64,000 nt of DNA from the NCBI RefSeq assembly GCF_003334355.1, contig NZ_QOWP01000012.1. One strand, 5' to 3'. A program made the position numbers and the translations under genes. The stretch comes from Escherichia coli (GTDB lineage Bacteria; Pseudomonadota; Gammaproteobacteria; Enterobacterales; Enterobacteriaceae). Below, piece after piece: positions 36,066 through 37,809 of this stretch. Every line of letters starts with the position of its first letter. The first letter of the stretch is position 1. The notes under the pieces were generated by a model that had not been told where the DNA came from, ran no database searches, and was given only the letters and a program-made list of their open reading frames with translations.

Positions 36066-36086
36066 CCTCTCCCCTATGGGGAGAGG
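36066..36086 (+). other. Intercistronic GC-rich stem-loop between glnH and glnP
   Basis: cctctccc-ctatg-gggagagg (8-bp stem) followed by a G-rich tract; lies inside the operon, so more likely an mRNA stabiliser or attenuator than a full terminator. Confidence 0.5.
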
Positions 36087-36170
36087 ATTAGGGTGAGGGG
36101 CGCAAACCCGCTCCGGGGCCATTAATTACCCTGAATTTGATTATTTACACCACGGTAACAGGAACAACAT

Positions 36171-36830
36171 ATGCAGTTTGACTGGAGTGCCATCTGGCCT
36201 GCCATTCCGCTTCTGATTGAAGGTGCCAAAATGACCCTGTGGATTTCGGTCCTCGGTCTGGCAGGCGGTCTGGTAATCGGATTGCTGGCAGGTTTTGCAC
36301 GCACCTTCGGAGGTTGGATAGCCAACCACATCGCGCTGGTCTTTATTGAAGTGATCCGCGGCACACCTATCGTCGTCCAGGTGATGTTTATTTATTTCGC
36401 CCTGCCGATGGCGTTTAACGACTTACGCATCGACCCATTTACTGCGGCGGTGGTCACCATCATGATCAACTCCGGCGCGTATATTGCGGAAATCACGCGT
36501 GGTGCGGTGCTGTCTATCCACAAAGGTTTTCGTGAAGCAGGACTGGCGCTCGGTCTTTCACGTTGGGAAACCATTCGCTACGTCATTTTACCGCTGGCAC
36601 TGCGTCGTATGCTGCCGCCGCTGGGTAACCAGTGGATCATCAGCATTAAAGACACCTCGCTGTTTATTGTGATCGGCGTGGCGGAACTGACCCGTCAGGG
36701 GCAAGAAATTATTGCCGGTAACTTCCGCGCCCTTGAGATCTGGAGCGCCGTGGCGGTGTTCTATCTGATTATTACCCTGGTGCTGAGCTTTATTCTGCGT
36801 CGTCTGGAAAGAAGGATGAAAATCCTGTGA
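36171..36830 (+). CDS. glnP: Glutamine ABC transporter permease GlnP
   Basis: 219-aa ORF; polar amino-acid permease family. Confidence 0.95.
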
Positions 36831-37549
36831 TTGAATTTAAAAACGTCTCCAAGCACTTTGGCCCAACCCAGGTGCTGCACAATATCGATTTGAACATTGC
36901 CCAGGGCGAAGTCGTGGTGATTATCGGGCCGTCCGGTTCCGGTAAATCGACCCTGCTGCGCTGCATCAACAAACTGGAAGAAATCACCTCCGGCGATCTG
37001 ATTGTCGATGGCCTGAAGGTTAACGATCCGAAAGTTGACGAGCGCCTGATTCGCCAGGAAGCAGGTATGGTGTTCCAGCAGTTTTACCTCTTCCCGCATC
37101 TGACGGCGCTGGAAAACGTCATGTTTGGCCCGCTACGCGTGCGTGGCGCGAACAAAGAAGAGGCGGAAAAACTGGCACGTGAGCTGCTGGCGAAAGTCGG
37201 TCTGGCAGAACGTGCACATCACTACCCTTCCGAACTTTCTGGTGGTCAACAGCAGCGTGTGGCGATTGCCCGCGCGCTGGCGGTGAAGCCGAAAATGATG
37301 CTGTTTGATGAACCGACTTCCGCTCTTGACCCGGAACTGCGCCATGAAGTGCTGAAGGTTATGCAGGATCTGGCTGAAGAAGGGATGACGATGGTGATCG
37401 TGACCCACGAAATCGGTTTTGCCGAGAAAGTAGCTTCGCGGCTGATCTTTATCGACAAAGGCCGGATTGCGGAAGATGGCAATCCGCAGGTGTTGATCAA
37501 GAACCCGCCGAGCCAGCGCTTGCAGGAATTTTTGCAGCACGTCTCTTAA
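36827..37549 (+). CDS. glnQ: Glutamine ABC transporter ATPase GlnQ
   Basis: 240-aa ORF; Walker A (GPSGSGKST), ABC signature (LSGGQQQRV), Walker B; start overlaps glnP stop by 4 bp. Confidence 0.95.
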
Positions 37550-37560
37550 TAAGACACATT

Positions 37561-37659
37561 GCCTGATGCGCTACGCTTATCAGGCCTACAGGATATCTGG
37601 CAACTTATTAAAATTGCATGAACTTGTAGGACGGATAAGGCGTTCACGCCGCATCCGGC
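37561..37659. repeat. BIME/RIP-like repeat (two inverted REP units around an A/T-rich core) downstream of glnQ
   Basis: gcctgatgcgctacgcttatcaggcctac ... aacttattaaaattgcatgaactt ... gtaggacggataaggcgttcacgccgcatccggc. Confidence 0.8.
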
Positions 37660-37809
37660 AAAAAAGCCCGCACGTTGTCAGCAACCTGCTTAATATCCCT
37701 TCCTCCCTTTCACCCGAAAGGGAGGCACACCAGATTCCTCTCATTTAAAATCGCCCCTCCTCCAGCATCTATACTTATCTTTTTGCTCTATTTTCTCACT
37801 GGAGGAGTC

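Follow-up and report, generated by a model that had tools for sequence, protein, structure and literature searches.

A BoxC-type repeat at a mapped glnH mRNA 3' end in the glnH-glnP spacer of Escherichia coli

The glnHPQ locus was analysed within a 64-kb stretch of Escherichia coli K-12-type DNA (the window), whose plus strand carries rhtA, dps, glnH, glnP, glnQ and ybiO according to its list of open reading frames. Gene order and annotation of the glnHPQ region are the same as in MG1655 (NC_000913.3), and the MG1655 coordinate is obtained by subtracting the window coordinate from 883290. The upstream cistron, glnH, encodes the periplasmic glutamine-binding protein and occupies 35286–36032 on the plus strand, as given by the open reading frame list and the MG1655 annotation; its TAA stop codon, ending at 36032, is immediately followed by a second in-frame TAA. 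The glnP gene lies on the same strand (36171–36830) and begins with an ATG at 36171; its Shine-Dalgarno sequence (AGGA) and start codon are contained in 36160–36173. The two genes are separated by a spacer of 138 nt. No sigma-70-like promoter was found in this spacer by a promoter scan, so that an internal promoter for glnP is not indicated.

A hairpin follows glnH, as stated in the preliminary description, and proved to be one pair longer than claimed there. Its 5' arm, CCTCTCCCC (36066–36074, plus strand), is joined by a TAT loop (36075–36077) to the 3' arm, GGGGAGAGG (36078–36086), giving nine perfect Watson-Crick pairs and a predicted energy of -18.3 kcal/mol for the hairpin alone. The G-rich run that had been reported before glnP was also present, as ATTA GGGTGAGGGG CGCAAACCCGCTCCGGGG at 36087–36118. 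The absence of a canonical U-tract was borne out, since the 8 nt on the 3' side of the stem read AUUAGGGU and a terminator scan identified no intrinsic terminator at the glnH hairpin. A search of the region 34800–37800 with permissive thresholds returned no credible Rfam family at the hairpin site, only chance-level matches to Antizyme_FSE and whalefall-1. Perfect hairpins with a stem of at least 9 bp and a loop of 3–8 nt gave 18 overlapping hits at 11 loci in the 64-kb window, against a mean of 2.1 when the same criteria were applied to dinucleotide shuffles of the window. Fold z-scores around the hairpin were modest (-2.0 for 146 nt and -1.5 for 70 nt), because shuffles of such a G+C-rich stretch fold well too. 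The decisive evidence that the hairpin is not a chance occurrence is that its 36-nt core is a repeat.

When a 96-nt query was compared by BLAST with complete E. coli genomes, matches were found in all 5426; the median number of matching places in a genome was 13, and the highest 26. The core and both flanks aligned with copies at yihR-yihS, gntP-fimH, tauD-hemB, adk-hemH and ycjD-fabI, among others, and ten MG1655 loci were fetched and aligned with their flanks. These ten defined a unit of approximately 60 nt, composed of a 5' flank (gCaC...acGGTC), three blocks and a 3' tail (Gaaaacc(c)gca). This repeat is BoxC, which was reportedly described by Bergler in 1992 and by Bachellier. It was rediscovered as the PIT (potential intrastrand triplex) element (Hoyne/Maher 2000), and subsequently received the name TMECO, for triplex motif of E. 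coli (Holder et al. 2015, PMC4666352). Judged by comparison with 14 further E. coli copies, aligned together with their flanks, by BLAST and by the published motif (Holder et al. 2015), the hairpin and the G-rich run are a single, slightly degenerate BoxC copy extending from approximately 36053 to 36111, with the G-rich strand on the plus (mRNA) strand. Its core is preceded on the 5' side by the flank gcactggcagtt and followed by the 3' tail cgcaaacccgc, and since the whole of this interval fits the repeat unit, hairpin and G-rich tract belong together. Both features of the preliminary description therefore exist, but as parts of one dispersed repeat and not as a regulatory design specific to this locus.

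The TMECO consensus is CCCTCNCCC-N3-6-GGGNGAGGG-N3-GGGNGAGGG; strict copies number 23 in MG1655 and 3610 across 262 proteobacterial genomes, and there are none in Salmonella (Holder et al. 2015, PMC4666352). The glnH-glnP copy agrees with it at all but one base. Block 1, the C-rich block that supplies the 5' arm, is present as CCCTCTCCC at 36065–36073. Block 2, which supplies the 3' arm, appears after the first loop as GGGAGAGGA at 36079–36087, where the final G of the consensus is replaced by A; this residue, A36087, is the next base after the 3' arm and the sole difference from the type-A consensus. The second loop is of type A (TTA, 36088–36090), and block 3 is present in the window as GGGTGAGGG at 36091–36099. 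Block 3 corresponds to the 'G-rich tract' of the earlier account (GGGTGAGGGG, 36091–36100, plus strand) and, by consensus and alignment, to the third strand of the proposed purine-motif DNA triplex; the G run as a whole is made up of block 3 and the 3' tail of the repeat. The G-to-A change at 36087 places the copy outside the strict pattern, and explains why it is absent from the 23 strict MG1655 copies in Table 1 of PMC4666352. In most other respects the copy resembles its family: it has three blocks, the TTA loop, a 5' flank of the form gcaC...aGTy, a tail ending in aaacccgc, and an intergenic location wholly inside the 138-nt spacer. It differs in its stem, which is perfect where 16 of the 23 listed copies have a mismatch ('mm' types). 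A T in block 1, where most copies have G, makes the stem perfect, and the resulting energy is -18.3 kcal/mol against -15.7 kcal/mol for the common mismatched type.

BoxC-type repeats were also seen in distant genomes. A near-identical core, approximately TCCCCTCTCCCC-loop-GGGGAGAGGGTTAGGGTGAGGGG, was common to the copies at yihR-yihS and gntP-fimH and to copies from Pantoea, Sinorhizobium and Rhizobium, and its GGTTAGGGTGAGGGG part was identical in all five. The latter copies lie on pSymB of Sinorhizobium meliloti, a plasmid of Rhizobium leguminosarum and a plasmid of Pantoea dispersa (approximately positions 1500–1555 of the extracted records), with up to 30 BoxC-type places in one Sinorhizobium record; the Rhizobium copy stands directly after an ABC-transporter binding-protein gene. 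Such tight conservation across classes suggests either horizontal spread or strong constraint.

The motif raises two readings at the level of nucleic acid structure. The BoxC consensus GGGGAGAGGGTTAGGGTGAGGGG is itself a canonical four-tract G-quadruplex motif, so that an RNA or DNA quadruplex built from the G runs might be supposed. However, the second tract of the glnH-glnP copy is only GG, and no canonical motif (four runs of at least three G, with loops of 1–7 nt) occurs on either strand of the 64-kb window; nuclear magnetic resonance of the consensus DNA indicated a triplex rather than a quadruplex (Holder et al. 2015, PMC4666352), and the stable RNA described below ends at 36090, ahead of tracts 3 and 4. 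A quadruplex is excluded for this copy by its sequence and was rejected as scarcely credible. The other reading is that the three blocks form an intrastrand purine-motif triplex (H-DNA-like) in single-stranded DNA, acting on replication, recombination or genome stability. TMECO oligonucleotides do adopt triplexes in vitro, where they block polymerases, and rearrangements between strains are commoner at TMECO loci, but the triplex was not detected in vivo, the data concern consensus oligonucleotides only, and RNA does not form triplexes of the purine motif (Holder et al. 2015, PMC4666352). At glnH-glnP, one triplet position has been lost (GGA for GGG) and the third block is damaged in B2 and O157 alleles. 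One insertion could be taken as a sign of instability: in strain B2.3 (NZ_CM185023.1), among the few E. coli genomes without an intact spacer, an IS21-family element (ISEc10, with istB annotated) lies inside the BoxC 5' arm at approximately window position 36070 and splits glnH from glnP. Yet 5402 of 5426 genomes retain the locus intact, so that it is not unstable, and a role in DNA is considered very improbable here.

Published Term-seq data place a dominant 3' end of glnH transcripts at window position 36090 (MG1655 847200, minus strand). Its three entries are for LB at OD 0.4, LB at OD 2.0 and M63, with displayed read counts of 30331.8 and 130459 (Adams et al. 2021, PMC7815308, Supplementary file 1). 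The flanking sequence printed for this end is identical to window 36040–36100, and the terminal nucleotide is A36090, 4 nt beyond the last stem pair. A discrete RNA end at the hairpin, the outcome that the check proposed in the preliminary description would count in its favour, is accordingly found in all three growth conditions; the core of that description, an RNA 3' end at a U-less hairpin behind the binding-protein gene, is thus supported. Between the two cistrons, the sense RNA carries a stable hairpin at whose base an RNA 3' end lies, as would be expected of an intercistronic stabiliser.

Three other BoxC-type hairpins have Term-seq ends exactly 4 nt past the stem: 3781065(+), which follows lldD, 3959467(-), on the side of ppiC, and 4231270(-). 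At 632098(+), the end falls 11 nt past a BoxC-type stem. Hairpins with such ends occur in both orientations. The notion that ends are found only at copies with perfect stems was rejected, because those at 4231270 and 632098 follow mismatched stems. Missing ends at adk, zntA, tldD and other copies are uninformative, since the curated list of Adams et al. holds only about 1000 ends per condition. These observations are mildly new, in that one BoxC copy marks an mRNA 3' end and several others probably do so as well.

Two further ends were noted near glnH. One, at window 35233 (MG1655 848057, minus strand; Adams et al.), lies 53 nt upstream of the glnH start codon and comes directly after CTGGCACGATTTTTTCATA, which resembles the sigma-54 -24/-12 promoter region of glnH; it may reflect read-through or upstream-promoter transcripts that end in the glnH leader. 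The other belongs to dps, whose terminator hairpin (34920–34955, plus strand; GGCTTCC...GGAGGCC followed by a T-run) matches a strong Term-seq 3' end at MG1655 848340, and was also the source of a spurious Rfam match to ctRNA_p42d.

In intrinsic termination, the 3' end usually lies 7–9 nt past the stem. The glnH site resembles such terminators in that an RNA 3' end closely follows a GC-rich hairpin, and it might be proposed that some RNA polymerases stop just past the U-less stem, directly lowering transcription of glnPQ. The closeness of the end to the stem and its strength in all conditions would suit this, as would the hairpin and T-run that make many orthologous spacers resemble terminator-like attenuators. 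Against it, the E. coli tail AUUAGGGU has no U-tract, the terminator scan was negative, and an end at +4 is shorter than one at +7 to +9. Earlier reporter assays of PIT/BoxC, in so far as they are related by Holder et al., revealed neither promoter nor terminator activity and no effect on RNA polymerase or gene expression. Without a U-tract, the E. coli copy cannot attenuate canonically, and partial termination is considered rather improbable. True attenuation may be ancestral in other genera, to judge from the T-run that often follows the hairpin in their orthologues.

Precise ends just past U-less stem-loops have been recognized as the signature of transcripts trimmed by exonucleases and protected by a hairpin; such stem-loops determine exactly where steady-state RNAs end, and shield them from PNPase and RNase II (Dar and Sorek 2018). 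The glnH site, a stable stem-loop that has no U-tract and a precise 3' end directly beyond it, is like those at Rho-dependent 3' ends. It is unlike them in that the curated and bicyclomycin data of Adams et al. contain neither a Rho termination region nor, other than 847200 itself, any 3' end between 846400 and 847299, which covers glnP and the start of glnQ. Rho-dependent termination inside glnP is therefore unsupported as the source of the end, although this is an absence of evidence only. The same gap is a point in favour of termination at the hairpin, since the downstream event that trimming needs is not documented. Nevertheless, trimming is favoured over termination because the end is precise and U-less, and because PIT elements lacked terminator activity.

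To compare the spacer among relatives, 80 enterobacterial glnH loci were fetched and their spacers extracted, making 81 with the window. Every one of the 81 contained a stable hairpin (-13.7 to -38 kcal/mol, median -20.9), and these belonged to unrelated sequence types. The automatic sorting into REP-like, U-run and other hairpins was crude, and its reliable part is that all spacers have a stable hairpin, of several unrelated types. BoxC was confined to the window type and to Escherichia sp. E1V33, being absent from this spacer in E. albertii, a divergent genome labelled E. coli (L018), Citrobacter, Salmonella and Enterobacter. Both E. albertii and L018 instead had the hairpin GCCCGGCAG...CTGACCGGGC, and the REP-like hairpins of Citrobacter, Salmonella and Enterobacter were related to the E. 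albertii type. In Kluyvera, Kosakonia, Lelliottia and others, the hairpin was AGGGGCG-ACCTTT-CGCCCCT followed by a T-run, while Klebsiella had yet another palindrome. By parsimony, a BoxC copy would have taken the place of a REP-like hairpin on the branch leading to E. coli. The segment gcactggcag (36053–36062) may derive from gcccggcag, the REP-like arm of the ancestor; the usual 5' flank of BoxC, such as gcacggacagtc at adk, fits it as well. The occupation of one slot by unrelated hairpins in different genera is, on this sequence comparison, a second mildly new point, and a position conserved in spite of divergent sequences is the strongest argument for the need of a hairpin there. The slot after glnH, to judge from the orthologues, looks constrained.

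Within E. coli the spacer is nearly fixed, being intact in the 5402 of 5426 complete genomes mentioned above. Both hairpin arms were invariant in five E. coli alleles and in Escherichia sp. E1V33, while the loop read TAT, TCT or GCC depending on the E. coli allele. Damage to the third block took two forms: O157:H7 had GGGTGA-GGG, with a 1-nt deletion, and ST131 and ExPEC strains had GGGTGAAGGG, with a G-to-A change, so that neither allele retains the block 3 consensus. Escherichia sp. E1V33 keeps GGG at the end of block 2, where the window has GGA. Invariant arms combined with a drifting loop and third block agree with selection for the hairpin and not for a DNA triplex or G-quadruplex, albeit in a small sample of five E. 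coli alleles.

These patterns bear on the view that the copy is a neutral passenger, that is, a repeat that arrived selfishly or by accident and plays no selected part in glnHPQ expression, where the RNA 3' end is an unavoidable by-product of any stable hairpin. BoxC is dispersed, lineage-specific and missing from the same spacer in the relatives named above, and this copy is decaying in blocks 2 and 3. As a class, BoxC elements have no demonstrated function, occur in either orientation and show no bias towards any class of gene (Holder et al. 2015). Set against this are the stable hairpin in every orthologous spacer, the invariance of the arms while loop and third block change, and the near fixation of the copy in E. 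coli. Neutral insertion is regarded as the strongest competitor of the favoured reading, though an unlikely one.

The lower part of the spacer contains a separate control of glnP that the preliminary description had overlooked. The pairing site of the sRNA GlnZ, CCACGGUAAC (36150–36159, plus strand), lies immediately upstream of the glnP Shine-Dalgarno sequence, and is defined by the seed duplex and by published experiments. GlnZ represses glnP by pairing, as demonstrated with compensatory mutations in E. coli and Salmonella, and a pulse of GlnZ in Salmonella lowered glnP and glnQ more than 4-fold (bioRxiv 10.1101/2022.04.01.486790; PMC9731577). Since the unconstrained comparison of full-length GlnZ with the spacer returned a meaningless long duplex, a seed-only prediction near the ribosome-binding site was used, which gave -18.4 kcal/mol for the duplex with 36150–36159. 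The last 25 nt or so before glnP, including the Shine-Dalgarno sequence and the GlnZ target, were strongly conserved across orthologues, and the site or a close variant was kept in most of the 80 orthologous spacers. The spacer is therefore composed of two modules: an upstream hairpin that defines a glnH-only RNA, and a downstream sRNA site that tunes glnPQ.

The reading that we favour, and consider probable, is that a degenerate BoxC copy in the glnHPQ mRNA forms a hairpin that marks and protects the 3' end of a glnH-only transcript, most likely through trimming, while glnPQ is controlled separately by GlnZ. In RNA, only BoxC blocks 1 and 2 would matter, as they form the perfect 9-bp hairpin. 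Cleavage or termination further downstream would be followed by 3'-to-5' trimming by PNPase or RNase II, until the hairpin blocks it and leaves the discrete, abundant end 4 nt downstream, much as REP hairpins act in malE-malF and U-less stem-loops at Rho-dependent 3' ends. A glnH-only RNA would accordingly accumulate together with the complete glnHPQ mRNA. The glnPQ portion would be controlled on its own, through GlnZ pairing at the glnP ribosome-binding site, and the net outcome would be more binding protein than permease. The hairpin and the conserved GlnZ site would together explain how one operon sets different outputs for its first and later cistrons.

The arrangement resembles the REP/BIME element at malE-malF. 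REP hairpins were reportedly identified as intercistronic mRNA stabilisers by Newbury, Higgins and colleagues in 1987, with malE-malF as the paradigm. In both cases, a dispersed, GC-rich palindromic repeat lies between the binding-protein and permease genes of an ABC importer operon, has no U-tract and coincides with an RNA 3' end. Unlike malE-malF, the glnH-glnP repeat belongs to a different family with no REP consensus, and stabilisation of glnH would follow by analogy. The REP consensus palindrome (of the GCCGGATG... type) was not found in 36033–36170, although REP-like hairpins occupy the equivalent position in Citrobacter, Salmonella, Enterobacter and E. albertii. The Rfam naRNA4 family, a REP-derived RNA, was matched only downstream of glnQ (37629–37690, plus strand), below threshold at 36.1 bits (E = 0.00044). 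Together with a neighbouring match to ES036 at 37582–37625, it points to a REP/BIME element where the glnHPQ operon ends.

A broader and more tentative proposal, to which we give rather less than even weight, is that BoxC hairpins constitute a second dispersed family of hairpins beside REP that define 3' ends and block exonucleases, and that the glnH-glnP copy has been domesticated as a non-homologous replacement in a conserved hairpin slot. The four BoxC-type ends at +4 nt, the hairpin in all 81 spacers, and the retention of the arms while the triplex block decays are compatible with this. The glnH-glnP copy lies inside an operon, in the sense orientation and at a strong RNA 3' end, while no such role has been reported for the BoxC family; a concrete role in RNA is thereby proposed for one copy of a repeat family that has been without a reported function for 30 years. 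In this spacer, the requirement for a hairpin after the binding-protein gene would be fulfilled by unrelated sequences in different genera. All of the components are of known kinds, and the importance of the locus beyond correct annotation is low; the proper label for the region is a BoxC copy with a mapped glnH mRNA 3' end, rather than a bespoke regulatory design.

Several minor features of the spacer and its counterparts were recorded. In the fold of the full-length spacer, UUAGGGUGA (36088–36096, comprising loop 2 and part of the third BoxC block) pairs with UUACCCUGA (36127–36135), making a second helix that adjoins the glnH hairpin. A G-to-A change in Escherichia sp. E1V33 converts one G-U pair of this helix to A-U. 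The second helix could form only in read-through transcripts. Finally, an intercistronic BoxC copy was observed in another ABC-importer operon, in the pstA-pstB spacer (MG1655 3908495–3908530), where it has the opposite orientation and places the C-rich strand in the mRNA.
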